DNA of 64,000 nt from an uncultured Gammaproteobacteria bacterium (GCA_964588955.1 CAZPQJ010000001.1:93572-157571), one strand, 5' to 3'. Shown: positions 8,192 to 43,522, counted from the stretch's first letter. The notes: generated by a model from the letters alone, not told the origin. A program made the numbers and translations.

Positions 8192-8212
8192 TTGAACACA
8201 AATTGTGTTCAA
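8192..8212. promoter_or_regulatory. Palindrome TTGAACACA-AAT-TGTGTTCAA (site 1 of 3), a likely bidirectional terminator for the minus-strand tRNA cluster
   Basis: Perfect 9-bp inverted repeat flanked by A-runs, so it is U-rich after the hairpin on the minus strand. The same motif recurs at 17929 and 43503. Confidence 0.5.
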
Positions 8213-8273
8213 AAAACTGACGTTGATCCGTCGTTTAAATACACGAACACCGTCGGATGTCCGACGGTGACCA

Positions 8274-8350
8274 TGGTAGCGGGGGGCGGAATCGAACCGC
8301 CGACCTCGGGCTTATGAGTCCCACGCTCTAACCAACTGAGCTACCCCGCC
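8274..8350 (-). tRNA. tRNA with CAU anticodon (elongator Met or lysidine-modified Ile2), 77 nt with encoded CCA
   Basis: Reverse complement folds as a cloverleaf: acceptor GGCGGGG/CCCCGCT (G1-U72), anticodon loop CUCAUAA, T-loop GGTTCGATTCC, discriminator A and CCA. Confidence 0.8.
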
Positions 8351-8498
8351 TTGTAAACTGCGACTTCTGAAATTCCTCGATCTGCTGCGTTGCGGGTCCC
8401 TGCTCGCTCTTCAACGTATATTTTGGATACGTCTCAGAGCTCGCTGTCCCGCGCCTTGCATATCGAGTTTTTCAGAAGTCTCGTCTCCCATATCCATC

Positions 8499-8584
8499 TG
8501 GTGCCGCGGGAGGGATTTGAACCCTCAAGCCCTTGCGGGCAAAGGTGTTTGAGACCTTCGCGTATACCGTTCCGCCACCGCGGC
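8499..8584 (-). tRNA. tRNA-Leu (CAA), type II with long variable arm, 86 nt, CCA encoded
   Basis: Reverse complement: acceptor GCCGCGG/CCGCGGC, anticodon loop CUCAAAC giving anticodon CAA, variable arm GCCCGCAAGGGC, T-arm GAGGGTTCAAATCCCTC. Confidence 0.85.
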
Positions 8585-8686
8585 CTGTTTTGTGGCAGGG
8601 CAATACTAGCAAACCCCCTGTGTTTTTTCAAGGGCCTATTTTTGCCTGAAGATTGACAGATAGCCTGAGAAAGCGTATTCTTCCCC

Positions 8687-8763
8687 CGCGGGATGGAGCA
8701 GCCAGGCAGCTCGTCGGGCTCATAACCCGAAGGTCGTCGGTTCAAATCCGACTCCCGCAACCA
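8687..8763 (+). tRNA. Initiator tRNA-fMet (CAU), 77 nt, CCA encoded
   Basis: C1-A72 mismatch, three consecutive G-C pairs in the anticodon stem (TCGGG/CCCGA) and loop CTCATAA. Nearly identical to E. coli tRNA-fMet (CGCGGG..GCTCGTCGGGCTCATAACCCGAAGGTCGTCGGTTCAAATCC). Confidence 0.9.
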
Positions 8764-8768
8764 AAAAT

Positions 8769-8798
8769 CCGTCAGCGACAGGCTGGCGGTTTTTTGTT
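8769..8798 (+). terminator. Rho-independent terminator after tRNA-fMet
   Basis: Stem CCGTCAGC/GCTGGCGG (one G-U pair), loop GACAG, then TTTTTTGTT. Confidence 0.6.
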
Positions 8799-8833
8799 AT
8801 ACTGGTCGACGCTCTGCCTCTTTATCCCACATT

Positions 8834-9304
8834 ATGACCATGACCACGCATGCTGCTATCGGAGCGTTTATTGGGGCAAGAATCGGTAACCCCGTCCTCG
8901 GTTTCATTATAGGACTCGCCTCTCATTTTCTTGTTGATACCATTCCTCACGGCGACTCAAAGCACGTCCAGTGCTATTACCACGGCCATACCCGCGAGAA
9001 GCGCCGTTGGTTGCGGTTTTTACTTATTGATGCATGTGCGGCAACGAGTTTGGTGTTGATATTGCTCGCCACCCGAACATCTACCCAGCGTTTGGTATTT
9101 TCTTTAGCCATGATTGGCAGTATTCTTCCTGATCCGCTGGTCGGTTATTATGAATTAACCAAAAGTCGTTTTGTACGTCCGGTGTATCGTTTGCATTTTC
9201 TTTTTCATAACGCGCTCAGTAAACGTGTGGGAGATATTCCATTGCGCTATGCCTTGGTGGTTCAAGCCGTGGTGGTATTTTTCATTGTGGTGCGATTGCG
9301 GTAA
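8834..9304 (+). CDS. Membrane-bound metal-dependent hydrolase family protein (DUF457/YdjM-like)
   Basis: N-terminal THAAIGAFIGA and conserved His/Asp (HFLVDTIPHGD) match the DUF457 pattern. Confidence 0.5.
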   Translation: MTMTTHAAIGAFIGARIGNPVLGFIIGLASHFLVDTIPHGDSKHVQCYYHGHTREKRRWLRFLLIDACAATSLVLILLATRTSTQRLVFSLAMIGSILPDPLVGYYELTKSRFVRPVYRLHFLFHNALSKRVGDIPLRYALVVQAVVVFFIVVRLR

Positions 9305-9316
9305 AATAGACTAGCT

Positions 9317-10084
9317 ATGGCGCATATTATTTCGGTGGTCAATCAAAAGGGAGGGGTGGGTAAAACAACCACCAGTGTAAACTTAGGGGCATATTTGGCG
9401 CACTTGGGGAAGTTTGTGTTGATTGTGGATTTGGATCCTCAAGCCAATGCTTCATCCGCCTTCGGTATTAACTATCGAGAAATTCCCGGAGGAACCTATG
9501 AAACGATGATCGGCTCCCATCGTATTAAAGATTTGATCATTCCTACCGAACATGAAGGGCTGAAAATCCTTCCCGCCTCTCCTTCGCTTGCGGGGGCCGC
9601 AGTCGAGTTAGTCAACGAACTGGCTCGTGAGCACAAATTGCATCAAGCATTGCTTGAGGTGCGTAACGATTTTGATTATATTTTGATCGATAATCCTCCG
9701 TCGCTTGGACTTCTCACGATTAATGGATTGGTGGCTTCGGACTCCGTGCTCATTCCGGTGCAAGCGGAATATTTCGCCTTGGAAGGATTGGGACAACTTC
9801 TTGGCACGATCGACTTGATCAAACAATCCTTGAAACCGGAATTGAAAGTGATGGGAGCGGTGATCACGATGTTTGATCCTCGTACGAAGTTGTCGCAAGA
9901 AGTGTTCTCGGAATTGTACAAGTATTTCCCAGACACCATTTACCGTTCGGTGATTCCGCGCAGTGTGCGTTTGGCGGAAGCCCCGAGTTTTGGACAATCC
10001 ATTTTACGTTACGATCCTGCGAGTAAAGCCGCTAAGGCCTATGAACGATTGGCTCGCGAATTTTTATATAGAGAGGAATTATGA
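9317..10084 (+). CDS. parA: Chromosome partitioning ATPase ParA/Soj
   Basis: Deviant Walker A NQKGGVGKTTT and ParA-type motifs, with parB immediately downstream. Confidence 0.9.
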   Translation: MAHIISVVNQKGGVGKTTTSVNLGAYLAHLGKFVLIVDLDPQANASSAFGINYREIPGGTYETMIGSHRIKDLIIPTEHEGLKILPASPSLAGAAVELVNELAREHKLHQALLEVRNDFDYILIDNPPSLGLLTINGLVASDSVLIPVQAEYFALEGLGQLLGTIDLIKQSLKPELKVMGAVITMFDPRTKLSQEVFSELYKYFPDTIYRSVIPRSVRLAEAPSFGQSILRYDPASKAAKAYERLAREFLYREEL

Positions 10085-10947
10085 ACAAATCATCCGGCTT
10101 AGGAAGGGGACTCGGGTCATTGATCCCCATGAAACAACCATTGGTGGCAGCGAGTCCGGCCCTGACAACGCCGAGTGGTTCAGGCGTACGTGAAGTGGCC
10201 CTCGCGTTGATCGTGCCTAACCCGCGCCAGCCGCGACGGCATTTTTCTCCGTCGGAGCTGGAAGATTTAATTGCTTCGATTAAAGAGCATGGATTGCTGC
10301 AGCCGCTCGTGGTTACCGAATTGCCAGACGGACGTTACGAATTGATCGCTGGGGAGCGTCGTTTGCGCGCTTCCACCATGTTGGGACTCAAAGAAGTTCC
10401 GGTGGTTGTGCGCACGGCGAATGATCAGCAAAAACTGGAGTTAGCCTTGATTGAAAATATTCAGCGCCAGGATTTGAATGCTTTGGAAGAGGCGGTGGGG
10501 TATCAAGCGTTGATAGAAGAGTTTCGAATGACACAGGATGACGTGGCTCGGCGCGTGGGGAAGAGCCGTTCGGTGGTGGCTAACACCTTGCGTCTGCTCG
10601 ACTTGCCAAGCGAGATGCAAACTGCGTTAGTCGACGGCAAGATTAGCAAAAGTCACGCCCGCACCTTGTTGGCGGAAACAGATCTAGCGAAACGTGAACA
10701 GTTGTTTCACGCCATGGTGAACGGGTCTGGTATGACTGTCCGCGAAGCGGAGACGCGCGCCAGCGGAGTTAAAAAAATCGGATCTACCCATGCCAAAGAT
10801 CCAAATCTTCTTGACCATGAACGCCGTTTGCGCGAAATCCTCGGAACCAAAGTTGAGATTCTCGACCGCGCCGGAAAAGGAAAGGTCGTTTTGCATTACT
10901 ATTCCAAAGAAGAGCTGCGTGAACTCCTCCATCGTCTCGCAGATTAA
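10081..10947 (+). CDS. parB: Chromosome partitioning protein ParB/Spo0J
   Basis: ParB box LQPLVVTELPDGRYELIAGERRLRA and HTH region; the start overlaps the parA stop. Confidence 0.9.
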   Translation: MNKSSGLGRGLGSLIPMKQPLVAASPALTTPSGSGVREVALALIVPNPRQPRRHFSPSELEDLIASIKEHGLLQPLVVTELPDGRYELIAGERRLRASTMLGLKEVPVVVRTANDQQKLELALIENIQRQDLNALEEAVGYQALIEEFRMTQDDVARRVGKSRSVVANTLRLLDLPSEMQTALVDGKISKSHARTLLAETDLAKREQLFHAMVNGSGMTVREAETRASGVKKIGSTHAKDPNLLDHERRLREILGTKVEILDRAGKGKVVLHYYSKEELRELLHRLAD

Positions 10948-12530: not shown

Positions 12531-12545
12531 GAGGGGGCGGAGGGG

Positions 12546-13172: not shown

Positions 13173-13319
13173 GAAGACCTCCTATGAGTGAGGTTGGGGT
13201 AGGATTGATTGACGATCCCGCATCAACGATGAGGCTTTTTGACGACATTGTCAAGGATTGCGCCTTCGCACGGGGAGCGGTAAACTATCCGTAACATCTT
13301 TGATTGATTGTGTTGATGT

Positions 13320-14792
13320 ATGGCTAGAACAAGGTTTCAAACAGGACGCGGAGGCGGCACCCGACCACCGGATCATCCACCTGGTGGAGCACCGGCAGCA
13401 CCGGATCGTACGTTGAGGATTGTGGACACGAAAGCGGCTCTCGAGGCTGCCGTAGAAGTTCGTAAAGCAGAGGTTGAACGCATTAAGACGAAGGAAGCGG
13501 CCGAAAAACGAAGAGCACAGGCACATGCGGATATGTTGGCAGCGCAAGCGCGTGTCCAGGATAATTTTCGCTACGACATTGCTGGGGTGCCAAATTCAGC
13601 CGATGCCGACGCGCCGCGAGAAGTCCACTTTAATCTGAAGGCATCAAGTGGAACCGACGTCGACTTGGCGGCGTTTTTGCCAGAGTTGCGTGGCATGCGG
13701 TTGTTGGTTGGTGAGGAGAAACTACGGCGCATGGAAACAGAAGAGATCGATGCGGAAACCCATGAACGCGTCGTGCGTGTTCCAGAAGCCTTGTTGGTGG
13801 AGGGAGATGGTACATCTGCCGCAGACACAGGCAAGTTACTTTTGTTTATTGAACAAGCGGTTGCCTTGGACACGCCAGAAACCAAGGCACAGGTTGCCGC
13901 GGAGAAAAAGTTGAGCGGGGCGATTGCTGGCATGTTCAAAAAACGACCGCTTGTGCGGGTGCGGGAATATAAAGCGATGGAAGAAGCGGTGGTGCGCGCG
14001 CGAGCGGAGAAGGCGGAGATGGTAGAAGAACTCGTTGAAGAAGTCGTTAAAGAAATTAAGGAAAAGGAGCACATCGATTTATTTGCACCGTTTGGAGGTG
14101 AAGAAGGGTGGAAAAAACAGTATCGTGAACGCTTGGAAGCGGAGTACAAAGCATCGGAATACTTGTTTGCCCCCAAGGAGTTAAAACAAGAAGAGCACGG
14201 GCATGATGAGGGCCATGCGGAAGAGGGCCACGGCCACGGCCATGGTCATGGAGGATCCAAAGGCGTGTTTGGAGTCTTTAAGGACGCGGCCAAAGAGACA
14301 AAGAATATTTTTGTCACTCTCGATAATGATCTCACCATCCGTGTCGCGGCTATCGACGCGCATTTTGCGAAGGAGGAAAAAGAGATTCATCACCGTTTGA
14401 AAACGATCAAAGAGGAGGAAAAACATGATAAGGAGCATAGAACGACGGTGCCGTTCTTTAGCAAGGAAATGCTAAAACGTCTCGGCACAGATGCGAAACG
14501 ATTTGTAAAAAAGAGCGGAGTGACTGCGGAATTGGGCTGGGAAGAAACAAAACGGTTAACGTACAAATATCCCGGAACCGCTGTTAAGTCGTTGTCCTAC
14601 GTTGGTGGACTAGCGGCAGTGCCGACAATCTCGCTTGGAATGGGGATTTGGGGTCTCACCAATTTGCCGGGTTTGAAAGGAGCTAAAGAAGAAGTTGCTA
14701 ACTGGATCAACTGGGGGATGGGGTTGGTAGGACTACCCTGGGAGATTCCTACAGGCAAGAAAAAAGGTGGCGGCGGACACGATCATCATTAA
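13320..14792 (+). CDS. Hypothetical coiled-coil protein with His-rich segments and C-terminal hydrophobic region
   Basis: Long Ala/Glu/Lys-rich helical stretches, an HGHDEGHAEEGHGHGHGHGG tract, a C-terminal GGGGHDHH, and predicted TM or amphipathic segments near the C-terminus. Confidence 0.45.
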   Translation: MARTRFQTGRGGGTRPPDHPPGGAPAAPDRTLRIVDTKAALEAAVEVRKAEVERIKTKEAAEKRRAQAHADMLAAQARVQDNFRYDIAGVPNSADADAPREVHFNLKASSGTDVDLAAFLPELRGMRLLVGEEKLRRMETEEIDAETHERVVRVPEALLVEGDGTSAADTGKLLLFIEQAVALDTPETKAQVAAEKKLSGAIAGMFKKRPLVRVREYKAMEEAVVRARAEKAEMVEELVEEVVKEIKEKEHIDLFAPFGGEEGWKKQYRERLEAEYKASEYLFAPKELKQEEHGHDEGHAEEGHGHGHGHGGSKGVFGVFKDAAKETKNIFVTLDNDLTIRVAAIDAHFAKEEKEIHHRLKTIKEEEKHDKEHRTTVPFFSKEMLKRLGTDAKRFVKKSGVTAELGWEETKRLTYKYPGTAVKSLSYVGGLAAVPTISLGMGIWGLTNLPGLKGAKEEVANWINWGMGLVGLPWEIPTGKKKGGGGHDHH

Positions 14793-14796
14793 TAAC

Positions 14797-14826
14797 CAAA
14801 AAGACCCTTGGTGGGTCTTTTTGATT
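14797..14826. terminator. Bidirectional intrinsic terminator between convergent genes (13320..14792 and topA)
   Basis: Stem AAAGACCC/GGGTCTTT with loop TTGGT, with an A-run on one side and a T-run on the other. Confidence 0.65.
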
Positions 14827-17066
14827 TATTCCTCGCTAGACGTTTCTTCGCTTTGCTTTTTGAAATCGCACTCTTTGTTGGAACATTTGATGACGCCCTT
14901 GGCAGCAAAAACGAGAAGGGATTTACAGGTGGGGCAGGTTTCGCCATTGGGTTTGTTCCATAAGGCAAATTTACAGTCTGGATAGCGGTTGCAGGAATAG
15001 AAGACTTTGCCGCGCTTGGAGCGCTTCTCGGTGATGTCGCCTTCTTTACATTCCGGACATTTGACCCCGATCCCTTTGTCCATCGATTTGATCGTTTTGC
15101 ATTCTGGATAGCGTGAACAGGAAAGGAAAGAGCCGAAGCGGCCTTGCTTAATCACCATCGGGGCTTGGCAGGCGGAGCATTTCTCTTCTGTACTCAAGAC
15201 TTCCATCTTTTCCGTGTCTTGTTTGAGTGGCTTGGTATTTTTGCATTCTGGGAATCCGGTGCAGGCGAGGAATTTGCCGAAGCGGCCGAATTTAATCACC
15301 ATCGGCTTACCGCATTTTTCGCACACCTCTTCGGTAGGAATTTCTTCCCGCTTGGTCTTGGCAATCTCTCCTTCTTTGGCTTTGAGGGCGGCGGCAAACG
15401 GTTCCCAAAACGCGGAGAGCATGGGGCCCCATTCCACCGTGCCCTCGGCCACTTCGTCGAGCGACGTTTCCATGTTGGCGGTAAACTGATAGTCAACAAT
15501 GTTGGGGAAGTGTTCCATCAGCAAGTCGGTGACTTGTCCGGCCACGGGAGTGGGAAAGAGTTTTTTGCTTTCATCGCGTTCCACATATCCGCGATCGATT
15601 ACTGTGGCAATCGTCGGCGCATAGGTGGACGGACGCCCAATGCCATGTTCTTCCAGTACCTTCACGAGCGAGGCGTCGGAATAACGCGCTGGTGGTTCGG
15701 TAAAGTGCTGTGTTGGGGTGATGCTGACGGCCTCGACGGCATCGCCTTGGTTCATGGCTGGCAGCAAGGTTTCTTTAGCCGCTTTGTAGACTTTCATGAA
15801 GCCGTCAAACACAACAATCGAACCATTGGCACGGAACGCCGTGTCGATACCTTCTGCCACGATATCTACCGCCGTGCGCTCGAGTTCCGCTTCCGGCATT
15901 TGGGTGGCCATAGTGCGGCGCCAAATGAGGTTGTAGAGTTTCCATTCCGCACCTTCAAGATCGTTTTTCAACAGCGTTGGTTCGGCAGCGGCATCGGTTG
16001 GGCGGATAGCTTCGTGCGCTTCTTGCGCTCCTTTGGATTTGGTTTTAAATTTGCGCGGCTCGCTCAATTGATACTCTTTGCCGTACTCCTTGCCGATGAA
16101 TTCACTGGCGGAATGCAAGAAGGCGTCGGCCAGGTTCATGGAGTCGGTACGCATGTAAGTGATGCGCCCCGTTTCATACAGGCGCTGCGCGGTCATCATG
16201 GTCATTTTGGCGCTCATCCCCAGTTTGGTGTTAGCCTCTTGCTGTAAGGAAGAGGTGGTAAGCGGTGTTGGCGCCGCCTTTTTGACCTGCTTTTTTGCGA
16301 CCTCGCCAACGGTGAATGGCTTACCTGCCACGGCATCAACAATTGCTTTGGCCTCGGCGTCATTTTTGATATCGAGCTTTTCAATCTTTTTGCCGTTGGC
16401 ACGAATGAGTCCTGCCTCAAACTCCATGCCGTCCTTTTTGAACAGGCCATCAATCGACCAGTATTCTTCTTTCTTGAACGCTTCGCGCTCGCGCTCGCGC
16501 TCCACAATCAAGCGCACGGCAACGGATTGCACGCGCCCGGCAGAAAGCCCGCGCTGAATTTTTTTCCACAGAAGTGGCGAAAGGGAATAGCCGACCAAGC
16601 GGTCGAGCACGCGTCGCGCTTGCTGGGCGTCGACCATGCGCATGTCCAAATGCCGCGGATGTTCCACGGCGGCGTCGATGGCAGTTTTGGTGATTTCGTG
16701 AAAGGTAATGCGTTTGGCTTTGTCTTCCGGAATCTCTAAAATTTCCGCCAAGTGCCAGCTGATCGCTTCTCCTTCACGGTCCTCGTCTGTTGCCAGGTAG
16801 ACTTCATCTGCTTTGGCTGCCGCTTTTTTGAGGGCAGTGACATTTTTGCGTGCCTTGGTTGGAATGACGTACTTGGGCGTGAAGCCGTGCTCCACGTCTA
16901 CGCCGATGTTGTTTTTTGGTAAGTCGCGTACATGACCAAAACTGGAAAGGACGACATAGTCCTTTCCAAGATATTTGGAGATCGTTTTCGCTTTAGTGGG
17001 AGACTCGACGATGAGGAGCTTGGCCATAATGTCGTCGATAGTGCCATTGAAAAGTGTCGCTGTCAA
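14826..17066 (-). CDS. topA: DNA topoisomerase I with C-terminal tandem C4 zinc-ribbon domains
   Basis: TOPRIM N-terminus (LLIVESPTKAKTISKYLG), a catalytic Tyr region, and three Cys4 zinc ribbons (CEKCGKPM..CTGFPEC; CSACQAPM..CSRYPEC; CPECKEG..CNRYPDC). Confidence 0.95.
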   Translation of the reverse strand: MTATLFNGTIDDIMAKLLIVESPTKAKTISKYLGKDYVVLSSFGHVRDLPKNNIGVDVEHGFTPKYVIPTKARKNVTALKKAAAKADEVYLATDEDREGEAISWHLAEILEIPEDKAKRITFHEITKTAIDAAVEHPRHLDMRMVDAQQARRVLDRLVGYSLSPLLWKKIQRGLSAGRVQSVAVRLIVEREREREAFKKEEYWSIDGLFKKDGMEFEAGLIRANGKKIEKLDIKNDAEAKAIVDAVAGKPFTVGEVAKKQVKKAAPTPLTTSSLQQEANTKLGMSAKMTMMTAQRLYETGRITYMRTDSMNLADAFLHSASEFIGKEYGKEYQLSEPRKFKTKSKGAQEAHEAIRPTDAAAEPTLLKNDLEGAEWKLYNLIWRRTMATQMPEAELERTAVDIVAEGIDTAFRANGSIVVFDGFMKVYKAAKETLLPAMNQGDAVEAVSITPTQHFTEPPARYSDASLVKVLEEHGIGRPSTYAPTIATVIDRGYVERDESKKLFPTPVAGQVTDLLMEHFPNIVDYQFTANMETSLDEVAEGTVEWGPMLSAFWEPFAAALKAKEGEIAKTKREEIPTEEVCEKCGKPMVIKFGRFGKFLACTGFPECKNTKPLKQDTEKMEVLSTEEKCSACQAPMVIKQGRFGSFLSCSRYPECKTIKSMDKGIGVKCPECKEGDITEKRSKRGKVFYSCNRYPDCKFALWNKPNGETCPTCKSLLVFAAKGVIKCSNKECDFKKQSEETSSEE

Positions 17067-17073
17067 GAAGTCC

Positions 17074-17937: not shown

Positions 17938-17949
17938 ACGTTGTGTTCA
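17929..17949. promoter_or_regulatory. Palindrome TTGAGCACA-CGT-TGTGTTCAA (site 2 of 3) overlapping the dprA start codon
   Basis: One mismatch relative to the motif at 8192 and 43503. It sits in the 18-nt gap between the pth stop and the dprA GTG start. Confidence 0.4.
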
Positions 17950-17955
17950 AAGGAG

Positions 17956-19853: not shown

Positions 19854-19863
19854 ACAGATAGGG

Positions 19864-21890: not shown

Positions 21891-21896
21891 TCTTTG

Positions 21897-25679: not shown

Positions 25680-25685
25680 GAAACA

Positions 25686-28659: not shown

Positions 28660-28661
28660 CT

Positions 28662-34600: not shown

Positions 34601-37600
34601 CGAAGTTTCCGCTACCGGCACGGCAGCCGATGTGGTGTTTGTGGAAGATCCGCCGAGCGACGTGCTCAAAGAGTATCTCTTTAAATTGAGCGGCGGTGAC
34701 GCTGTTGGTATTCGCATTGCCAAAAATGACGACCTATTGAGTATTGGTGATTGGTACGATGCGCAAGGATTCACGGGTGCGCCATCAGAAACTACGGTTG
34801 ATGGCTATCAAGCCTTGCGTGATGGTCGAACCGTATATGTGAGTGCTGCGAACGTGAGTGGAGATTTTTCCGGAACAATTTATCCGAATGTGTACGTGAT
34901 CTCTTATAACGAAGGGGCTTCCGAAGAAACAATTGCCATCTTCGACCAAATGCTCGACAACTGGCAGTTCAATAGCAATATTTCCAACGATGGAATTTGT
35001 TATGAAGTGACAGGGGATTCTGCCGGTGAGCCAACGTTTGATGCTGATGGTCAAACGGTGAGTTGTACCTCCGATCTAGACTGTACGTCTGGAGCCTGCC
35101 GCGCGGGTAAAGACAAATTGCGCCGCGACATGCAGCGTCTGACTGATGTGAAAGAGATTGCCGGAGATTTGCAAGCATATGGGGAAGCTAATGGTCGTTG
35201 TAGTGCCACCAGCACCACTTCATGCACTTCCGACAGTGATTGTCCAGGGGTGGAAACGTGCCAGGCGCTGTACCCCACGATTGATTCTGGCAGTTTCTTG
35301 CGTGCACAATCGAGCAGTGCTTGGGATTCGTGGCAGAACGTACTCGGTACAACGCTTGGGGTAACCTTGCCAACCGATCCACTGAACGCCTACGCCGAGT
35401 GCGGCACAACGGGCGGTAGCTATGGTGACTACAATGCTGACACCTGTTGGTATGAAGCGGGGGCGCAGTATGCGTGTCCTACGGGTTCTCACGTTTATAA
35501 TTATAAAAATATCGGTGGCACAGCTTACCGGGTGTGGACAGATCTTGAATACCACTATGAAAGTGGAGTCACCGAGTGGCACGGTCGTGTTGATAGCGAG
35601 GTTGCGGATGGGCTTTCCGTTGTGGCCGGACAAGCGTTTACCGGCATCGTCGATGGATTCCAAGAAGACGCCACCTGCGATGGTACGGTAATGGGTAATT
35701 CTGCAGCTTGCGGGGACGGCGTCATTGGCGAGAGTGAAACATGTGAAATTGGAGATACGTCAACGACCAGTTGCCATGCGTTAACTTGTCTTTCCGCTGA
35801 TCCAGATTATGATGGCGCGGCTTGCTTGGTTGATTGCGCGGATACAACGATTTGTCCGGGTGGGGACAAGAACGCTGACGGGATCTGCGATGGTGGTCCG
35901 GCTGGCGGTCAAGCTTGTGGCACCGGAGACGTGGATTGTACCGATACATCAATTTGTTCCACCTATCCGTACTTTGAACGCACGGAAGGGACGCAAGTAA
36001 CTACGTGTGATCGTTCAACCTGTGATGCTTTCTCTGCCGCTGCAGACGCCGCGTGTGTACCGTTCCGTTGCGGTAACGGAGTCGTGGATGATGGAGAGGA
36101 TTGCGACGACGGTTCCCACAACGGCAACTATGGTTATTGTGGCACCAGCTGTCAGTGGGACTCCACGGCCTTCTACTGCGGCGACGGTACGCTCGCTGGC
36201 GGAGAAGTTTGCGATAAGGGTGCCAGCAACGGTCAGTACGCCCTTTCTTCTGCCGATACGTGTTCGGCCACTTGCGATGGTCCGGGGTTGTATTGCGGCG
36301 ACAGCGTTGTGAACGGTTCAGAAGTTTGCGATGGTACTTCCGAGACCTGGGCTGGTTCGTTGTGCCCCGATGGGGTCACTACGTGCACCTCGAACGCGGA
36401 TTGTGGAGGAAACACCTGCGGGGCAGGAGGGTTAATCTACAACGGTGCTTGTCCGACAGCTTCATTGTGTGTGGGGGGAGATTACGACGGATTCCCCTGT
36501 GGTAACTTTTCTTGGCCAGATGCGGTGTCTATTATGAGTGGCTATTCTGACTTCGCGATTGACTTCACCGAAGGAGCTTATGGAGTGCTTTGCCAAAATT
36601 ATGGTGGCACGTGCGTTGATTCGGCTGTCTATCCTACCTACCACATCCGCTCGTGTAATGATTCCGGTACCTCGGCTGACTGTTCTTGGAACACCTGGCA
36701 GGATTTCTGTAAAGCGGACACGGCTTCCTGTGGTAACGGAGTGGTAGATGGTACGGAGGCCTGTGATGACGGTAATGATTCAAATAATGACAGCTGCACC
36801 AATCAATGCACCGTGAACATTTGCGGTGATGGGTATTTGTACACCGACCATGAATCTTGCGATCGTGCGGAAGAAAACGGACAGGAGTGTACAGCTGATT
36901 ATGGCAGCACCTGCCGTTACTGTTCCTACGATTGCACGTACCTCACTTCTTCTGGTTCTTATTGTGGAGACGGAGTGGTACAAGATTCCGACGAGTTATG
37001 TGACGGCTCTGAGCTCACCCAGTTCCGTTGTTTCGACGACGCGACGACACAGCAGGTTGGAGATGTTTGTTATGAGGCAAATGCTGCCGAAGGGAGCGGT
37101 TGTGAATCGGGATTCACCTGTCGCAATCTTGGAGTTTGTAATGGTGGATTAAACGATGGTATGTACTGTACCCAAACGGATGCGGTTTCTGGGAAAGATC
37201 TGGCTTTCTGTGCCGGGGGCACCTGCGTACTCCCAACCTGTGCCGACGACTGTGGTTCCACCTGCCCGTTCAGCTATGCTGATCAGGCGGTGGACGTAAC
37301 CAGTGAAGAGGCGGGGGCTACAGCCAATGACAGTATCAGTTTATATAGTCTCGACACGGACGGCTCGCCGAATTTGGCGACGCTGACCATTCCCGCCTGC
37401 CGCATTGAAAGCGGGTTGACCGCTGACATTTCTGACGCGGATCGAGATTATTCCGACGTCGATATTATGTTCGTGTTGGACGACTCGCAATCCATGGGTG
37501 AGCCGCTTGGTTCATCTACGGGTCTAGAAGTGTTGCGCGATGCTGTTAGCGACGCGATCGATCAATTGTATGATGCTTATCACGGCACGAACGCCGAGGT

Positions 37601-38528
37601 GCGCATTGGCTTTGCGTTTATTGGCGGTAAACATGGGTACGACTTAGATGGGGATGGTGTCTATGAAACCGTTGATGACTATGGCACGACGGAGTTCTTT
37701 AACTTTGCTTATGACTTTGGCGAAGAACGTTATTTCGTTGATGACACGCAGGAAGGGGATCTTGATGCCGCTATTACGACCGCTCTTTCTGTTACCTATC
37801 ACGCGGACAAAAAAACAGAGAGTATTCAATGTTACAATCCTGATGAAGATCCATCCTGTGTGGAGGTAACGGGTACGCCGCTCATTCAGGTGCTACGCAG
37901 TGTGAAAGATGCCTTCGCGAATGACACGAATGTTGGAGATGATGACGCGAAGTATGTCATCCTGTTTACCGATGGGGATATTAAAAATGACGCTTCCGAA
38001 CTGACTGCGGTTGAAGATGCCTTCGCCTTGACTGACGCTTCACACAAGTCGTATGTGGAGCAAGTGACCGACACTATTGATGAACTTAAAGACAGCGGTA
38101 TTACACTGTTCAGTGCGGCTTTTGCCGAAAGTGATTCCTGTGGTGCGTATCAGGCGGCAAAATGGTCGAATATGGATTGCTCACCCGCAGAGCGCGTCTG
38201 TGAAAAACAGTATGATGAAGGGGATTACAGCTGTGAGCCGCCATCGAATAACATTACCTACGCCTACTCTGCCACCGACGCGGATGGATTGGTAGAAATG
38301 TATCAGTCCATCATCGACGCGATCTTAAATGTTACGGTGACTCTTACTGATGCCGACGGCAACACCGCAACCTCGACGGTCGACATTGGTGACTCCATTG
38401 ACCTGCCGTTGCCAGTATTCTTTGCTTGCGATGCCTCCGCGGAAAGCAACCTGAACATAGAAGTGACCTTTACGGGTTCCGGGGCTATTGAATTTAGCAA
38501 CATCCAGTTGAACATGTGTTCGCCGTAA
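28662..38528 (+). CDS. Giant (3288 aa) cell-surface protein: pilin-like TM hairpin, TIG/Ig-like domains, ~13 Myxococcus-type Cys-rich repeats (DUF4215-like), C-terminal vWA domain
   Basis: The N-terminus GFLWMTSAGNEERTHKARMVITNAIIGLVIIMMSF is paralogous to 26752. TIG-like segments include ITAVSPLNGAVGSYVTISGTNFG. Repeats follow CGDGxxxxxExCDDGNxxxGDGCSxxC (e.g. CGNGVVDDGEDCDDGSHNGN). The vWA domain has MIDAS DIMFVLDDSQSMG and KYVILFTDGD at about 37455-38110. Confidence 0.7.
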   Translation: MKRLSFSTWLKGLTGMGILAGVLGAAPALAQSLNTGIEEGGAFQQALGLGTGDIKIIIANIIRIFLGLLGVIAVSLIVYGGFLWMTSAGNEERTHKARMVITNAIIGLVIIMMSFIIVSFVLNKLLAATGFGGGTFDEPPTCDGCIPPDYSSVFTIDSVSPQGDQTIKNLTVRLTFNKDVDAATVSDNITVTADGSDTPVTGTFSVVGDRVSFHPDAVCEGYPEEYCFDSNTPYTITLGSGLRSIEELALSCGGFYDSCTYTFTSGELVDTQPPSVSVTSPEYGDSVSVNALVPIQAHVEDDGGVAEVEFYVDGNLIDTIQPDGDTPLTFDATIDWDTSALTALERYGLTAVAYDVNDHSERSDEVRVIARAEHCFNGDYPTTDPNFPDADEEGEDCGGADCGACDGSSCRASEDFTCAATCVDGVCTDVPEITAVSPLNGAVGSYVTISGTNFGSRVGSVKFGDVEAELANCDDAWQTFQVIAVVPERLTVGETYPITLTTADGYTDTTNDDYGTPIDDFEVNTTVRPGICAVGPSYGEVGSFTTVYGNNFGATQGDGTIYFGTEAASAYASWNDSQVKVDVPTLVAKDYFMTLWVGGVSSNDVNFTVVDSDAEEAPYIDSVSPTSGPIGQYVTITGSGFGSTPDLVYFINNNPDSPDYGGRFEADVDFPAVCEDNYWSHTQIIVKVPIGLGQTDYLIEVRKDDQLSNDADFAVTAGTASPGICLVSPSAAPVGYPSVTLSGEGFGTTTGEVHFYDGSEGGDTSIASSWSDTEAVVEVPVGATSGPVILYDALFRSSNAVNFDVGDCNTQNVCDANTQQCCASGACIGANDVCPEAAQVNAEYVWEFSTGAIPVVPTVQARCSTTMISPTPWSGRAGGESVCVNAGISATFDVAMDTASLKADGNITLGACSDATCASSTPVDLGDVSTTATSFAVYPTSSLAPGTTYQVVLSSAITSSLGVAIAPTRWTFTTSTDANDCAYAGVMVSPSLATIEEQDGLATFNAAALAEDACIILNNNDTTWSWSVDPSDRYVSFSDAAVAGCTGEPTSCQTVMGIAEGDSIVTAEESTQGLDDDAEVDVNFTNPYAVDYWPGCSNGGTACLNAAIGAQFNTTMDDVTVESAGAIHLYACSDESCSTHTEDIGIDVERSDADETVVNITLNDDDYPSGNLATRTYYEVVFSSAIESQSGVPLNEHYNGDFSWTFLTRATDEICAVDHVVVDPSASTVTYVGATSVFDSVPYGDPDDCSTSGQRLTATGYDWGWSIANTTIANLWQDGVPVQVVEDRIPDGCTTSCLSEGTLSYEAICGEDADGDGSLLDPGEDCDNGTGLAGAGCSSTCQSLGTTACSSEEGSNCCGNNNLDTGEECDDGNTANSDGCSNVCLNEGEAGGVSTCGDEGIVTHSDLVNSRGWAGGEDCDDGNTDSGDGCSNLCLNEGSVSRRDLNGICGDGEVDAPAEQCDDSGTRNGDGCSEYCLYEGSDACSNPTSDRNCCGNEQTEASAFESCDDGNTVNGDGCSAVCLLEGSSRGYATPSWCGDGTTGTGEAPADTVSACEVSLSSLDGFVEPEQVAVIASTAPGEVVDGLASTTVSAAAEGETGQAALNLSCSCAEDNQCTSSDSSLSLGCGTGGCCYERPKFLGYTPSDGDACRNALVAFDFDTEMALATFTDNLTIELVLEGDEACPYSSSSTAFDTSGNVFVKVWSSAKHLLSRLVDPAQASDTACYLPITFTSSPTEDGGERVTAIYTQLLEADRSYIVSIKGDPSHDGSGVRSATGVGLDHNYARVISIGDNVCSFDTVSVQDVDADSPGLFTTVGEAHPYTATAMTMIGGVAQAIVPIPDVYDWDWSKTWWSTDDTVLQVGTQTDSGSESNNTVTAQNDNGTASIYASAQITDDTLFSPSTALTNVYGSAEATTNLCKNPWPALKSGHSWDPFRDGAFGNHDPDGDGVVEVMRGAGWMHFTTYYCRDDIGISTNENGAEVSATGTAADVVFVEDPPSDVLKEYLFKLSGGDAVGIRIAKNDDLLSIGDWYDAQGFTGAPSETTVDGYQALRDGRTVYVSAANVSGDFSGTIYPNVYVISYNEGASEETIAIFDQMLDNWQFNSNISNDGICYEVTGDSAGEPTFDADGQTVSCTSDLDCTSGACRAGKDKLRRDMQRLTDVKEIAGDLQAYGEANGRCSATSTTSCTSDSDCPGVETCQALYPTIDSGSFLRAQSSSAWDSWQNVLGTTLGVTLPTDPLNAYAECGTTGGSYGDYNADTCWYEAGAQYACPTGSHVYNYKNIGGTAYRVWTDLEYHYESGVTEWHGRVDSEVADGLSVVAGQAFTGIVDGFQEDATCDGTVMGNSAACGDGVIGESETCEIGDTSTTSCHALTCLSADPDYDGAACLVDCADTTICPGGDKNADGICDGGPAGGQACGTGDVDCTDTSICSTYPYFERTEGTQVTTCDRSTCDAFSAAADAACVPFRCGNGVVDDGEDCDDGSHNGNYGYCGTSCQWDSTAFYCGDGTLAGGEVCDKGASNGQYALSSADTCSATCDGPGLYCGDSVVNGSEVCDGTSETWAGSLCPDGVTTCTSNADCGGNTCGAGGLIYNGACPTASLCVGGDYDGFPCGNFSWPDAVSIMSGYSDFAIDFTEGAYGVLCQNYGGTCVDSAVYPTYHIRSCNDSGTSADCSWNTWQDFCKADTASCGNGVVDGTEACDDGNDSNNDSCTNQCTVNICGDGYLYTDHESCDRAEENGQECTADYGSTCRYCSYDCTYLTSSGSYCGDGVVQDSDELCDGSELTQFRCFDDATTQQVGDVCYEANAAEGSGCESGFTCRNLGVCNGGLNDGMYCTQTDAVSGKDLAFCAGGTCVLPTCADDCGSTCPFSYADQAVDVTSEEAGATANDSISLYSLDTDGSPNLATLTIPACRIESGLTADISDADRDYSDVDIMFVLDDSQSMGEPLGSSTGLEVLRDAVSDAIDQLYDAYHGTNAEVRIGFAFIGGKHGYDLDGDGVYETVDDYGTTEFFNFAYDFGEERYFVDDTQEGDLDAAITTALSVTYHADKKTESIQCYNPDEDPSCVEVTGTPLIQVLRSVKDAFANDTNVGDDDAKYVILFTDGDIKNDASELTAVEDAFALTDASHKSYVEQVTDTIDELKDSGITLFSAAFAESDSCGAYQAAKWSNMDCSPAERVCEKQYDEGDYSCEPPSNNITYAYSATDADGLVEMYQSIIDAILNVTVTLTDADGNTATSTVDIGDSIDLPLPVFFACDASAESNLNIEVTFTGSGAIEFSNIQLNMCSP

Positions 38529-38539
38529 CCCTTGCATCT

Positions 38540-39325
38540 ATGGAGTACCAACCACAACCGTATATTTATGCCTCCGAGGTCGGACAAACGCCGGCCGTGC
38601 CTCCAACCAATTGGTGGCAAACGCACAAAACTCTCCTTGTGAAGATTGGGATTGGTTTGTTAATCGCGGCCGTTGTGGGACTGACGGTCCTGTTTCTCGT
38701 ACGGCGCATAGCCGCCAATAAAGCGGCGCGATTGGCAGAAGTCGCTCAGGAACAAACTGCCGTGAGTTCGGCGCAGAAAGATTGTGATCAAACAAAAAAT
38801 CCCGACAAGTGCAATCAACGCATTGCCGCTGATCTGGCGCAGTCAACCGGCAAAGTTTCTTTTTGTCATGAGCTCTCAGGAGATGCATTTGATAACTGTA
38901 TTACCTTGGCGGCGTTGACGGCCAAGAGTTTAACCGCGTGTAATCAGGTGAATAATGCGGAGAAAAAAACTGCGTGCACCAATGCTGTCAACGCCTTGCT
39001 TCATCCATATGTTTTGCAAGTATCCGCAGATGTCCAAACGGCGATAGATGCGCGTAATCCGGATATGTGCGCCACGGTTGAAGATGTGGACTTGTGTTTG
39101 GAGTTGGTGGGTGTTGCCGATCGGGATCTTGATGGGTTGAGTGAGGAGAAAGAACAGACCCTGGGTACCAGCGACACGTCTATTGATTCCGATGCCGATG
39201 GATTGTCTGATGCCGATGAAGTCAATATCTGGAAAACGGATCCAGCGAAGACCGACACCGACGGGGACAGTTATCCCGATGGCACAGAGGTAAAAGGGGG
39301 GTATAATCCTCTAGGAAGCGGTTAA
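38540..39325 (+). CDS. Single-pass membrane protein with Cys-containing ectodomain and C-terminal thrombospondin type-3-like Ca-binding repeats (paralog 1 of 3)
   Basis: TM helix IGIGLLIAAVVGLTVLFLV, then DxDxDGxxDxxE repeats (DRDLDGLSEEKE, DSDADGLSDADE, DTDGDSYPDGTE). A GTG at 38516 is an alternative start. Confidence 0.55.
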   Translation: MEYQPQPYIYASEVGQTPAVPPTNWWQTHKTLLVKIGIGLLIAAVVGLTVLFLVRRIAANKAARLAEVAQEQTAVSSAQKDCDQTKNPDKCNQRIAADLAQSTGKVSFCHELSGDAFDNCITLAALTAKSLTACNQVNNAEKKTACTNAVNALLHPYVLQVSADVQTAIDARNPDMCATVEDVDLCLELVGVADRDLDGLSEEKEQTLGTSDTSIDSDADGLSDADEVNIWKTDPAKTDTDGDSYPDGTEVKGGYNPLGSG

Positions 39326-39410
39326 CGAGATTATCGGCGTGAGCCCCCTAGCCACTAGCAACTGTCCGCTCCGACCGGCCACTATCCACTAGCCACTTAA
39401 TCACTTTTCT

Positions 39411-40112
<702 letters not shown>

Positions 40113-40136
40113 CGAGAGGTATTTTAAGCGTGCTGT

Positions 40137-41120
40137 ATGGCCGAGGCACCCAATCAATTGCAAAAACCCGCCGGTGCGGAAACTCCCGCATCTGCCAATG
40201 AGCCAGTCATTCACGTGATGCCGGCGGAGTTTCGCGCGGGCAAAATGCCGATGAGCGCCTTGCCGAAGCCAGACATCGCGGCGCCTCCGGTCGCGCCGGT
40301 TGCTCCTCTCGCGCCTGTGCCGCCCAAAGCGCTCCCGCCGAAGCCGGGCTTAGCAACAAAAAAACGGCGCCTGCCGCCGGTGTTAGTTATTGGGTTGATT
40401 CTTTTTCTGGCGATTGTGATTGGGGCAGTGGCGGTGTTGCTTTCCCTTAATCAACCGACCGTGAACGTGGCAGTCAATAACACCCCCGTCAACGTCAATA
40501 CAGAAACGCCTCCAGAACCAACGCCAACCCCTACCCCAACGCCAACTCCAACCCCGATCGAACCCGTGGGTGGAGCCGACACGGACAGTGACGGGCTCAC
40601 CGATATTGAAGAAATTTTGTTTGGATCCGATACCCGCAATCCGGATTCCGATGGCGATACGTATCTTGACGGCAACGAGGTCTATCATCTGTATAACCCG
40701 CGCGGCAACGCTCCCGGCCTTCTGGTCGATACGGGTTTTGCGCGCGAGTTTACTGCCGAAGGATTGGACTTTCAGGTGGTCTATCCGTCACGCTGGACCG
40801 CGCAGTTATTGGAGACGCGCGGAGTGATCTTTAAAGTGCCAACGGGGGAGTTTGTTCAGGTTAGTCGTGTTGCTAAAGACGCGAGTCTTGATGTGGTGAG
40901 CTGGTATCTTACGCAGTCCCCGGAGGTGAAGGCGGAAGATGTCACTCCGCTCACTACCCGCCAGGGCTACGCGGGAATCTTAAGTCCAGATAAACTATCC
41001 ACCTATCTGGATCTCGGAGATCGTGTTTACATCATCAACTACAACGTAGGTGACCTGAAAACGATTAACTTTTTGACGACCTATCAGATGATCGTCAATA
41101 GTTTTATCCTCAAAAAATAA
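40137..41120 (+). CDS. Membrane protein with Pro-rich N-terminus, (PT)n linker, TSP3-like repeats and a C-terminal globular domain (paralog 3 of 3)
   Basis: TM helix VLVIGLILFLAIVIGAVAVLLSL, then PTPTPTPTPTPTP, DTDSDGLTDIEE and DSDGDTYLDGNE, followed by a ~150-aa C-terminal domain. Confidence 0.55.
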   Translation: MAEAPNQLQKPAGAETPASANEPVIHVMPAEFRAGKMPMSALPKPDIAAPPVAPVAPLAPVPPKALPPKPGLATKKRRLPPVLVIGLILFLAIVIGAVAVLLSLNQPTVNVAVNNTPVNVNTETPPEPTPTPTPTPTPTPIEPVGGADTDSDGLTDIEEILFGSDTRNPDSDGDTYLDGNEVYHLYNPRGNAPGLLVDTGFAREFTAEGLDFQVVYPSRWTAQLLETRGVIFKVPTGEFVQVSRVAKDASLDVVSWYLTQSPEVKAEDVTPLTTRQGYAGILSPDKLSTYLDLGDRVYIINYNVGDLKTINFLTTYQMIVNSFILKK

Positions 41121-41121
41121 C

Positions 41122-41535
41122 ATGCTTTCCGCTCAATGTCTTCAAACCGCTTTGCCTGCCGCCATGCGCTTCCCTCAGCGCTTCGTGGAGACAATGCTTC
41201 AAGAAATCCATCGTCGCACCAAAAAGAGCGGGGAGATGTCTATCGTTTTTGTGAGTGAACGAGAGATGCGTCGGGTCAACCGCTTGTACCGTAAAAAAGA
41301 CAAGGTTACCGACGTACTTTCTTTTGAACTTCCTCTTGGTGACGTTTTGATTTGCTATCCTCAAGCTAAACGGCAGGCTGCCGAGCGTGGACATAGCGTG
41401 AAGCAGGAACTGACGGATTTGATGATTCACGGTGTTCTACATGCTCTTGGATACGATCACGAGGTTCCCAAAGATGCTAAACGCATGTTACCGCTTCAGC
41501 AAAAGATTTATGATGTCATCGCGCCTCGCTCGTAG
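41122..41535 (+). CDS. ybeY: rRNA maturation endoribonuclease YbeY
   Basis: Metal-binding motif HGVLHALGYDHE (H3xH5xH). Confidence 0.85.
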   Translation: MLSAQCLQTALPAAMRFPQRFVETMLQEIHRRTKKSGEMSIVFVSEREMRRVNRLYRKKDKVTDVLSFELPLGDVLICYPQAKRQAAERGHSVKQELTDLMIHGVLHALGYDHEVPKDAKRMLPLQQKIYDVIAPRS

Positions 41536-41863
41536 TATTGGTTATGCCCTAAAAGGTTTGGCTCATGTTTTCAAAACGGAGCTTAGTTTTCGTTTACAGA
41601 TTCTTGCGGGGACGGTGGTAGTGGTGCTGATGCTCCTGTTTCCTTTACCGCTTTGGCAACGGATCATTTTGTTACTGTTGATTGCCTCTGTTTTGGTGCT
41701 AGAGGTGATCAATACGATTTTTGAACGGATCGTAGATACCTTCAAGCCGAGGATTCACCCAGTGGTAGGGGAGATTAAAGATATGATGGCCGCTGCGGTG
41801 CTGATTGCCTCGATCACTTCCGGTGTTGTTGGATTCCTGCTATTGTGGCCGTACCTTATATGA
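41510..41863 (+). CDS. dgkA: Diacylglycerol/undecaprenol kinase DgkA family
   Basis: Three TM helices and the LEVINTIFERIVD motif; the start overlaps the ybeY 3' end. The listed ORF start at 41432 is probably too far upstream. Confidence 0.7.
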   Translation: MMSSRLARSIGYALKGLAHVFKTELSFRLQILAGTVVVVLMLLFPLPLWQRIILLLLIASVLVLEVINTIFERIVDTFKPRIHPVVGEIKDMMAAAVLIASITSGVVGFLLLWPYLI

Positions 41864-41867
41864 AAAT

Positions 41868-41998
41868 TAGAAATTCGAAGCACCAAATACGAAATAAGTG
41901 GAAATCGGAAAATGGAAAGGCGAAAACCCGTTTTTGGTTTTATTTTTTCGGATTTCGAATTTGTTTGGGATTTAGTGCTTCGGATTTCGAATTTTGTA
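41868..41998. mobile_element. MITE-like AT-rich element with imperfect terminal inverted repeats and internal direct repeats, upstream of ftsA
   Basis: Left end AGAAATTCGAAGCACCAAAT matches the reverse complement of the right end ATTTAGTGCTTCGGATTTCGAATTT. The direct repeat TCGGATTTCGAATTT occurs at 41948 and 41980, with an inner hairpin GAAAACCCGTTTTTGGTTTT. Confidence 0.3.
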
Positions 41999-42011
41999 TT
42001 TAGCTGAGGAT

Positions 42012-43274
42012 ATGTCTGAAAATATTATCACCGGCCTTGATATCGGTTCTTCCGCCATCCGTGTGGCGGTTGGACAACTGACTCCTCAGGAAGGTGGGCG
42101 TCAAGGCATTCATGTGATTGGTGCGGTGGAAGTACCGAGCGAGGGGGTGCATAAAGGAACGATTACCTCTATTGAAGACGCTGTTTCCGCCATCTCTAAA
42201 GCGTTGGAGCAAGGGGAACGGATGGTCGGGATTCCCTTGTCGGCTGCTTGGGTGGGCATTGCTGGGCACCACGTGCTGGTACAAGAAAGCAAAGGGGTGG
42301 TTGGGGTGGGTCGAACCGACGGGGAGATCCGTGACGATGACGTGGAGCGCGCTTTAGAAGCCGCACGCACCGTGGCTCGTCCTACCAACTACGAAATTTT
42401 GCACGTCATCCCTAAAGGTTTTACTGTCGACGGTCAGCATGGGATTAAAGATCCCGTTGGTATGAACGGGATTCGGTTGGAAGTCGACGCGGTGATTATT
42501 CAAGCGCTTTCCTCGCAGATTAAAAATCTCACCAAGTGCATTTACCGTACCGGTCTCGACATTGAGGATTTGGTCTATGCCCCGCTGGCGGGGGCAGAAG
42601 TGTTGGCCACGCCCCGCCAAAAGGAACTCGGGGTCTGTTTGGTGAATCTTGGGGCTTCTACTACCACGATGATTTTATTTGAAGAGGGGGATATTTTGCA
42701 CACCGCGGTGTTACCGATCGGGTCGGATCATATTACCAACGATATTGCCATTGGACTGCGCACCTCGCTTGAGGTTGCCGAGGCGGTAAAAGTACGTTAC
42801 GGTCACGCGTTCGCCGAAGGGATCTCTAAAAAAGATGTCATCGATTTGCGTGAATTTGGGGTGGAAGGAGAACAAGCCATAGAGTGCCGTTATGTTGCGG
42901 AGATCATTGAAGCGCGCGTGGAGGAGATTTGTGAACGCATCGATGCCGAGCTTGCTAAAGCGGACCGTTCTGGATTATTGCCGGCAGGTATTATTGTGAC
43001 CGGTGGCGGAGTGCGGCTTTCGGGGGTGGTAGATGTTATGAAACGCGTGCTGCGTTTGCCGGTAGCGATGGGAGAATTGCACAACGTTTCCAGTTCCCTT
43101 GAGCGCGTCGCTGACCCTGCCTTTTCTACCGCCGTTGGATTGGTGGCCTGGGGAGCGCAAATTCGCGAAGCCTCCGGCGGTCGCGGGGGTATGGGGAACG
43201 TGTTTGCGAAATTCAAAAGTGTCGACAAAGCTTCAGAACAAGTGCGCAAGTGGCTGCGCTCGTTGATTCCGTAG
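42012..43274 (+). CDS. ftsA: Cell division protein FtsA
   Basis: Actin-like ATPase: ITGLDIGSSAIRVAVG, VGIAGHH, and the conserved ftsA-ftsZ order. Confidence 0.9.
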   Translation: MSENIITGLDIGSSAIRVAVGQLTPQEGGRQGIHVIGAVEVPSEGVHKGTITSIEDAVSAISKALEQGERMVGIPLSAAWVGIAGHHVLVQESKGVVGVGRTDGEIRDDDVERALEAARTVARPTNYEILHVIPKGFTVDGQHGIKDPVGMNGIRLEVDAVIIQALSSQIKNLTKCIYRTGLDIEDLVYAPLAGAEVLATPRQKELGVCLVNLGASTTTMILFEEGDILHTAVLPIGSDHITNDIAIGLRTSLEVAEAVKVRYGHAFAEGISKKDVIDLREFGVEGEQAIECRYVAEIIEARVEEICERIDAELAKADRSGLLPAGIIVTGGGVRLSGVVDVMKRVLRLPVAMGELHNVSSSLERVADPAFSTAVGLVAWGAQIREASGGRGGMGNVFAKFKSVDKASEQVRKWLRSLIP

Positions 43275-43294
43275 ACTTGTTTGAAAAATAGATA

Positions 43295-43325
43295 GACGGG
43301 GTCATCGGCCCCGTTTTGTTTTGCG
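43295..43325 (+). terminator. Rho-independent terminator after ftsA
   Basis: Stem ACGGGG/CCCCGT with loop TCATCGG, followed by TTTTGTTTTG. Confidence 0.55.
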
Positions 43326-43502
43326 GTATATTGTTCCCTGACCACGGATCGAGCAGACGTTACTCCTTTAGGCCTTCTGCTCAAGGACAACGTCTGTCCC
43401 AGATGTGGGATGGGGACTTTGGTGACACGTTTTTTGCGTCCTTGACGTCTTGGGTACTCATGTTACGATGTGAGTACAAAATTGTGCTCAGAAGTGCATA
43501 AA

Positions 43503-43522
43503 TTGAACACAATATGTGTTCA
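43503..43522. promoter_or_regulatory. Palindrome TTGAACACA-ATA-TGTGTTCA (site 3 of 3) about 50 nt upstream of ftsZ, with a TGAACACA half-site at 43537
   Basis: Same 9-bp arms as the site at 8192. Not positioned as a terminator, so it is a candidate operator in the ftsZ promoter region. Confidence 0.45.

Follow-up and report, generated by a model that had tools for sequence, protein, structure and literature searches.

The CIRCE operator of the regulator HrcA (TTAGCACTC-N9-GAGTGCTAA), with its 9-bp perfect arms, is conserved across phyla and is situated past the promoter and ahead of the start codon at groES or dnaK. Among the regulators of cell division genes, DnaA is known to control ftsZ in Caulobacter. 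The boxes of NrdR are even palindromes of 16 bp, in which 8 nt lie between C4 and G13 and the central AT is kinked (PMC13584703); their spacing is 31-32 bp, and they reach over the transcription start (PMC9110341, PMC13584703). The WhiA core, GAYACRCY (GACAC), is non-palindromic (PMC11701221). Almost nothing is known about gene regulation and cell-cycle control in Patescibacteria (the Candidate Phyla Radiation, CPR), bacteria with very small genomes and few regulators, most of which cannot be grown alone. The element described here is a 21-bp palindrome with the consensus TTGARCACA-N3-TGTGYTCAA, which occurs three times in a stretch of 64,000 nucleotides (GCA_964588955.1, CAZPQJ010000001.1:93572-157571; hereafter the window) deposited under the name of an uncultured Gammaproteobacteria bacterium and placed by its FtsZ and DprA homologues in Patescibacteria, near Uhrbacteria. 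This palindrome is similar to CIRCE in its 9-bp inverted arms, its strict conservation and its placement from promoter to start codon, but differs in the spacer (3 instead of 9 nt), in the sequence of the arms and in the targets, which are division and morphogenesis genes and not chaperone genes, none of which was found near the palindrome among the flanking genes examined. The description that fits it best is that of a new cis-regulatory operator with wide conservation in Patescibacteria and a focus on ftsZ. No description of the motif was found in the searchable literature, outside of which lies one paper on the Patescibacteria SOS network.

A first-pass annotation of the window had reported the palindrome at three loci, and all three sites are indeed present. 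Site 1 (8192-8212, TTGAACACAAATTGTGTTCAA) is a perfect 9+3+9 palindrome, site 2 (17930-17950, shifted by one base with respect to the earlier call; TTGAGCACACGTTGTGTTCAA) has its symmetry broken at one G/T position, and site 3 (43503-43523, TTGAACACAATATGTGTTCAT), which had been regarded as perfect, keeps perfect 8+8 arms but has a broken outermost pair. With up to three mismatches to the degenerate pattern, these sites are the sole matches in the 64 kb, and the core CACA-N3-TGTG is confined to the same three places within the window. The claim that such a set would hardly arise by chance was borne out by shuffled windows, which gave a mean of 0.15 matches and never reached three (0 of 100). 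Searches against Rfam returned no match at gathering thresholds in the window, and around sites 1 and 3 no hit with a credible E-value. The palindrome is real and not a chance repeat, and very probably not a generic terminator either.

A scan of 185,579 species genomes with the strict pattern resulted in 61 loci, about a third of them labelled as Patescibacteria, and a scan of metagenomes in 59 loci (designated below by L-numbers where they have to be told apart). Among the species genomes, the palindrome maps between ftsA and ftsZ in 14 loci, which share the gene order ybeY-ftsA-site-ftsZ-nrdR-htrA and encode FtsZ proteins 62-81% identical to that of the window, and upstream of ftsA in one more. 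The metagenomes added seven ftsZ-leader cases and two more upstream of ftsA, where ftsA and ftsZ abut, which makes about 25 CPR loci in all with the palindrome either in the ftsA-ftsZ gap or upstream of ftsA. Other neighbours are mreB (three loci), a Polysacc_synt flippase gene (two), dcd and a class-I lysS (one each), as well as polX in two loci, both from Dehalococcoidia and with a second degenerate palindrome 21 bp off. In Saccharibacteria, the palindrome was found in the gap between ndk and tRNA-Arg(CCT) in seven loci. The DNA beside one Saccharibacteria palindrome (L038, ~6875-6920) reads as the 5′ half of tRNA-Arg(CCT), and a full tRNA-Arg is called by ARAGORN about 190 nt away (6660-6734), which may point to a partial duplication of the tRNA. 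Many of the other matches appear to be unrelated, such as plain terminator hairpins, operators of a TetR-like family and one tandem pair (L043); according to our own estimate, reasoned rather than computed, about 35 chance matches would be expected in 596 Gb.

The conservation of the ftsZ site was also followed in a sample blind to the motif, made of six FtsZ homologues picked by identity alone. The leader palindrome shows one mismatch in the relatives with FtsZ identities of 88% and 83%, three mismatches in those with 79% and 72%, and four in the one with 67%, and the right arm alone is kept in the relative with 71%. The site is thus kept with 1-4 mismatches in five of the six, which indicates a strongly conserved but not universal element that has decayed in some lineages.

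In the window, ftsA and ftsZ are 300 nt apart, and site 3 is found in this interval, past the ftsA terminator (43294-43316) and past a predicted sigma-70 type promoter on the plus strand (43442-43469; TTGACG, 16 nt, TG-n-TACGAT), which is conserved in the aligned leaders of relatives. The ATG of ftsZ (43573-44820, plus strand; Pfam Tubulin/FtsZ_C), at 43573, follows 49 nt downstream, and this start from the gene caller was confirmed on a public contig. The main palindrome (TTGAACACA-ATA-TGTGTTCAT) begins 61 nt past the first base of the -35 box, a distance that stays within 59-62 nt in ten loci and the window, and which puts the palindrome at about +25 to +45 of the transcript. The site therefore precedes ftsZ, as proposed in the first-pass annotation, but in the transcribed leader and not in the core promoter. 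That annotation had also pointed to conservation in related genomes as a check of its operator idea for sites 2 and 3, and the idea is supported by the recurrence of the ftsZ site in many Patescibacteria lineages at a fixed promoter distance.

The main palindrome is surrounded by weaker copies of its arms. An auxiliary degenerate site (TGAGTACA-AAAT-TGTGCTCAG, 43471-43491), whose right half TGTGCTCA ends at 43490, overlaps the predicted transcription start with this conserved half-site (TGTGCTCA(A/G)), placed upstream of the main right arm at a distance of exactly 32 bp. An upstream half-site at offset -20 is present in 10 of the 17 ftsZ leaders, in nine as TGTGCTCA(A/G) and in the tenth in a weaker form (GTTGCTCAA). 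On the downstream side, the extra half-site already noted near ftsZ was confirmed as a third left-arm copy (CTGAACACA, 43535-43543, with the core TGAACACA at 43536-43543) located 32 bp from the start of the main left arm, and similar copies occur at +32 in L122 and in L015 (mreB), and at +43/44 in L012 and L125. Taken together, extra half-sites lie at -32, +32, +43/44 and -21 bp from the main site, which correspond to whole helical turns. Full tandem copies 21-24 bp apart were found at polX, in L043 (5086-5127), L061 (904-945) and L085 (126-169), and at the pth-dprA junction of L134. A different arrangement was observed in L015, at mreB, and in L004, at an unknown gene: 5 nt separate the end of the palindrome from a strong -35 box, and the palindrome is centred near -51; the left-arm copy 32 bp downstream at mreB falls within the untranscribed promoter spacer. 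In ftsA-type promoters, the palindrome is likewise located upstream of the promoter.

Site 2 takes up the 18 nt that separate pth from dprA in the minus-strand run der-pth-dprA-topA, and precedes dprA (17074-17937; Pfam DNA_processg_A, DprA_WH) and topA (14826-17066; Pfam Topoisom_bac), both on the minus strand. Its coding strand reads TTGAACACA-ACG-TGTGCTCAA and contains the dprA GTG start (17937-17935). The palindrome had been described as covering both this start codon and its ribosome-binding site: the GTG is inside, but the AAGGAG next to the site is on the plus strand, and offers no ribosome-binding site to a minus-strand gene. The same gene order is found in relatives, and the orthologous pth-dprA junctions carry two tandem palindromes with two mismatches each in the closest relative (L134), and one palindrome with three mismatches in both L129 and L130. 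The dprA start codons GTG-(C/T/A)TC-AAA fix part of the right arm, but the left arm, outside of the coding sequence, is still recognisable. As the junction motif is kept in three relatives, and in tandem in the closest one, the link between dprA and ftsZ suggested at first holds in this lineage. Among the neighbouring genes at large, division and morphogenesis prevail (ftsZ, ftsA, mreB, flippase).

On balance, the 21-bp palindrome is probably a DNA operator for a dimeric regulator widespread in Patescibacteria, which probably forms higher oligomers, and whose effect would probably be repression. What is observed are the sites, their conservation, their constant geometry and the neighbouring genes, from which we infer the binding of a protein and its repressive effect, as well as the identity of any candidate for it. 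At ftsZ, the regulator would recognise a high-affinity palindrome within the transcript (about +25 to +45) and two outlying half-sites, a weaker one that overlaps the transcription start, three helical turns upstream, and another at three or four turns on the downstream side. If it bound them all cooperatively, initiation or early elongation would be blocked, resulting in repression. At mreB and one unknown gene, the strong site would be centred near -51, with a weak half-site inside the promoter spacer in the case of mreB, and in the present genome the operator would also sit on the dprA start codon, ahead of dprA-topA.

Several observations weigh against a DNA operator. No regulator gene was found beside any CPR site, and there is consequently no clue from autoregulation. 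Some relatives (L131, L133) show a decayed site, and site 1 and the site of L011 lie between convergent genes. Perfect 18/18 palindromes, kept across classes, would be unusually strict for an operator. The ftsZ-leader sites lie inside the transcript, some sites are found 7-8 nt before an ATG of ftsZ or of the flippase gene that lacks a Shine-Dalgarno (SD) sequence, and others on the dprA start codon or 4 nt before a tRNA-Arg, and such transcribed positions would also suit an RNA element. The three single stem transitions seen in ftsZ leaders (L048, L127 and L132), too few to carry weight, are all G-U compatible on the sense strand.

Since several sites are transcribed or next to start codons, a role at the RNA level is conceivable. 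The palindrome would then form a hairpin with a 9-bp stem and a 3-nt loop, either in the 5′ leader or between cistrons, controlling the translation or stability of ftsZ, dprA and other messengers through recognition by an RNA-binding protein or nuclease, or through a pairing switch with the extra arm copies. This explanation, which we regard as unlikely, would fit the transcription of the ftsZ site, the covered dprA start codon, the several loci where the palindrome ends 7-18 nt before an SD-less ATG and the site 4 nt before tRNA-Arg in L084. The hairpin is predicted to fold with -6 to -9 kcal/mol (z-scores of -2.4 to -3.9), alternative pairings with the extra arm copies are possible, and in L132 both the left arm and the third copy show a U opposite a G. 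However, no compensatory change was found in 15 leaders, where the main stem (P2) varies on one side only, and the proposed upstream stem (P1) pairs in 54% of cells, a level also reached by 451 of 500 shuffles; a two-hairpin model of the ftsZ leader RNA was accordingly rejected for lack of covariation. The arms are conserved in sequence beyond what pairing would require, and the variable pair becomes an A-C mismatch on the coding strands of dprA and polX. At mreB, ftsA and L004 the palindrome is upstream of the promoter, which makes a role at the mRNA level impossible for these genes. Finally, the spacing of the half-sites by 21, 32 and 43 bp keeps the helical phase, and one of them falls in an untranscribed spacer, an arrangement that would fit one face of the DNA helix and for which an RNA role offers no reason. 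The absence of covariation, the A-C mismatches, the upstream sites and the helical spacing altogether favour a DNA operator over an RNA hairpin.

Ordinary hairpins, either intrinsic terminators or stabilisers, which would share their sequence by coincidence, have a next to negligible probability as an explanation. A terminator scan accepts site 1 on the minus strand, and a good share of the non-CPR matches are plain terminator hairpins flanked by G+C. Each stem has only three G-C pairs. On the other hand, sites 2 and 3, which the first-pass annotation had not taken for terminators, precede genes and lack a T-run on the coding strand (a result also given by the terminator scan for site 3). The ftsZ site comes after a promoter and before a gene, while ftsA has a terminator of its own, and the same 18 bases recur across classes beside the same genes. 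The possibility of a generic terminator hairpin, raised in the first-pass annotation against its own proposal, fails for the CPR sites, which adjoin specific gene families and whose free N3 spacer is 95% A/T (35 sites) as compared to 58% in the other matches.

Site 1 itself has a MacB-type ABC permease gene (6729-7961, plus strand; Pfam) on one side and a cluster of tRNAs (Met, Leu, Met) on the other, the latter followed by an unknown gene and by parA-parB. It had been interpreted as a bidirectional terminator, but the terminator scan finds it terminator-like on the minus strand only, where the T-run after the hairpin is located, macB has its own terminator at 8003-8026, and the site was not found in the syntenic tRNA-parAB region of L130, the one relative checked. 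The centre of site 1 is about 51 nt upstream of the start deduced from a candidate extended -10 element on the minus strand (TGGTATACT, 8166-8158), a geometry that would be the same as at mreB. Past this element, the minus strand shows about 150 nt (8030-8166) with two hairpins and no convincing open reading frame (ORF), ending at the macB terminator hairpin. This stretch, which gave no Rfam match, could correspond to a small RNA controlled by site 1.

As regards the protein, the candidates NrdR, LexA, DnaA, ParB, WhiA and a TetR family were examined one by one, without any of them fitting the palindrome. The case of NrdR is suggested by its gene (44880-45356; Pfam NrdR Zn-ribbon/ATP-cone), which directly follows ftsZ in the window, with htrA next, and also follows it in most relatives. 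The palindrome would then be a shortened NrdR box, through which NrdR would couple division genes to the pools of deoxynucleoside triphosphates and autoregulate ftsZ-nrdR. In keeping with this proposal, the arms contain ACAC...GTGT as in the NrdR consensus, some sites adjoin dcd and ndk, which belong to nucleotide metabolism, and the distance between main and auxiliary sites is 32 bp in 10 of the 17 ftsZ leaders, overlapping the predicted start like the two boxes of NrdR. Nevertheless, NrdR is a very unlikely binder. The distance from C to G in the palindrome is 5 nt, that is, 3 bp shorter than in the NrdR box, its centre is odd and a central AT is not conserved. NrdR boxes come as two 16-bp boxes with a 15-16 bp linker at nrd genes, whereas the targets of the palindrome are not nrd genes, and neither the window nor any fetched locus carries one. 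The NrdR box ACACWATATATWGTGT has no match with up to three mismatches in the window, and canonical pairs of boxes were absent from the window and from the loci examined by then, a set without nrd promoters. Furthermore, the window protein keeps the canonical specificity residues VIDSR (D15, R17) and RRRR, and perfect ftsZ sites are found in L021 and L088, where nrdR does not follow ftsZ within the retrieved DNA. NrdR was rejected on the basis of box geometry and of its canonical D15 and R17 residues.

Three strict copies within 35 kb, in a window that also carries parAB and scpAB, bring to mind centromere-like or chromosome-organising sites, that is, a CPR substitute of parS bound by the ParB encoded at 10081-10947. 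The very strict sequence, the few copies per genome and the location of some of them between convergent genes would agree with such a role, and no canonical parS (TGTTNCACGTGNAACA, a 16-bp palindrome) was found in the window with up to two mismatches. We consider it highly improbable, since the sites track gene families and promoters and not parB, the distance to the ftsZ promoter is fixed, and the site close to parAB is the one missing in L130. The half-site is also unlike parS in sequence and spacing, and a lone parS-like match with three mismatches is at chance level.

The half-site TTGARCACA shares seven of nine positions with the DnaA box (TTATNCACA), and its copies occur in both orientations. 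However, the DnaA box has a T at position 4, whereas the arms read GA at positions 3-4 in every one of 70 cases (35 sites), always within a strict palindrome, and canonical boxes occur separately in the same promoters, so DnaA was discarded as its binder. As a separate observation, 9-mers similar to DnaA boxes (TTATACACA, TTATGCACA and TTGTNCACA) were detected upstream of the predicted ftsZ or ftsA promoter in 9 of 18 CPR loci (L003, L013, L019, L024, L032, L034, L059, L104 and L113), starting 9-26 nt upstream of the -35 box where one was found, against a background of 0.03 per 200 nt. Their frequency suggests that DnaA may act on the division promoter. Another DnaA-box-like sequence of the window, TGTGGATAG (about 55645-55655), is located between a TrmB-family gene and a methyltransferase gene.

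LexA was judged by gene neighbours and rejected, as there was no LexA-like ORF in the loci examined by then and no recA/lexA cluster among the flanking genes. WhiA was likewise set aside, because the half-site GA(A/G)CACA, in a strict palindrome, differs from the WhiA core. A small TetR-like gene shows TTGAGCACA-N3-TGTGCTCAA just past its strong promoter in L018, L030, L035, L041 and L067, which come from Elusimicrobia and Clostridia metagenome-assembled genomes (MAGs) and one unlabelled metagenome contig, with a second near-copy after the gene in L030 and L041. This operator has the same sequence as the palindrome, but spacers that, unlike those of the CPR sites, are not A/T-rich; the family, whose operator loci include none from CPR, counts only 17 homologues among 5.8 billion proteins, and was discarded. 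The TrmB-family gene of the window (54825-55574, minus strand) was set aside too, since its own upstream region (55575-55660) bears a different conserved palindrome, ACTGTCAAACTT-N6-ACAGT. This motif is less perfect in L122 (18310-18440) and L127 (13740-13875), and is probably the operator of that regulator. In L043, the tandem palindromes lie directly upstream of a gene for a winged helix-turn-helix nucleotidyltransferase followed by a HEPN gene, a pair that resembles a toxin-antitoxin system; the adjacent product may be the binder there, with at most a hypothetical link to the CPR sites.

A more ambitious proposal can be made tentatively, at slightly less than an even chance: a hitherto undescribed regulator shared by Patescibacteria, with a 21-bp operator nearly invariant across classes, would govern a small regulon in which division and shape (ftsZ, ftsA, mreB and the envelope flippase) are tied to the processing of DNA and the supply of nucleotides (dprA-topA and dcd), with a DnaA box frequent on the ftsZ promoter. 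If true, this would be a first circuit of cell-cycle control to be delineated in these episymbiotic and mostly uncultured bacteria. Such a strict operator at a fixed position of the ftsZ leader could be used as a bait for the regulator and as a regulon marker for thousands of MAGs, and offers a testable link among division, morphogenesis and DNA processing.

Other features of the window and of its relatives were observed along the way. The ftsZ region belongs to a long cluster (26752-46487 in the window) conserved in L122, L125 and L131-L133, whose first part encodes a protein with a type IV secretion system pilin domain, a giant surface protein of ~3,300 aa, two TSP3-repeat proteins and an unknown gene product, and whose second part consists of ybeY, dagK, ftsA, ftsZ, nrdR, htrA and pyk. 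Long perfect inverted repeats starting with GGGGTCAGGTCT occur in intergenic regions of relatives (L122, ~13950-14040; L125, ~9800-9900), and may be a small mobile or repeat element. Downstream of the cluster, two neighbouring minus-strand genes (47905-50804) harbour domains of the ATP-citrate lyase type, with Citrate_bind and an ATP-grasp domain in one gene and CoA-ligase and Citrate_synt in the other, which is unexpected for a metabolically reduced Patescibacteria genome. Finally, the last part of the window (60000-64000), where the G+C content drops from ~0.52 to 0.44, contains ORFs without any Pfam match and a tRNA-Asp (62823-62900), and may be an integrated island.

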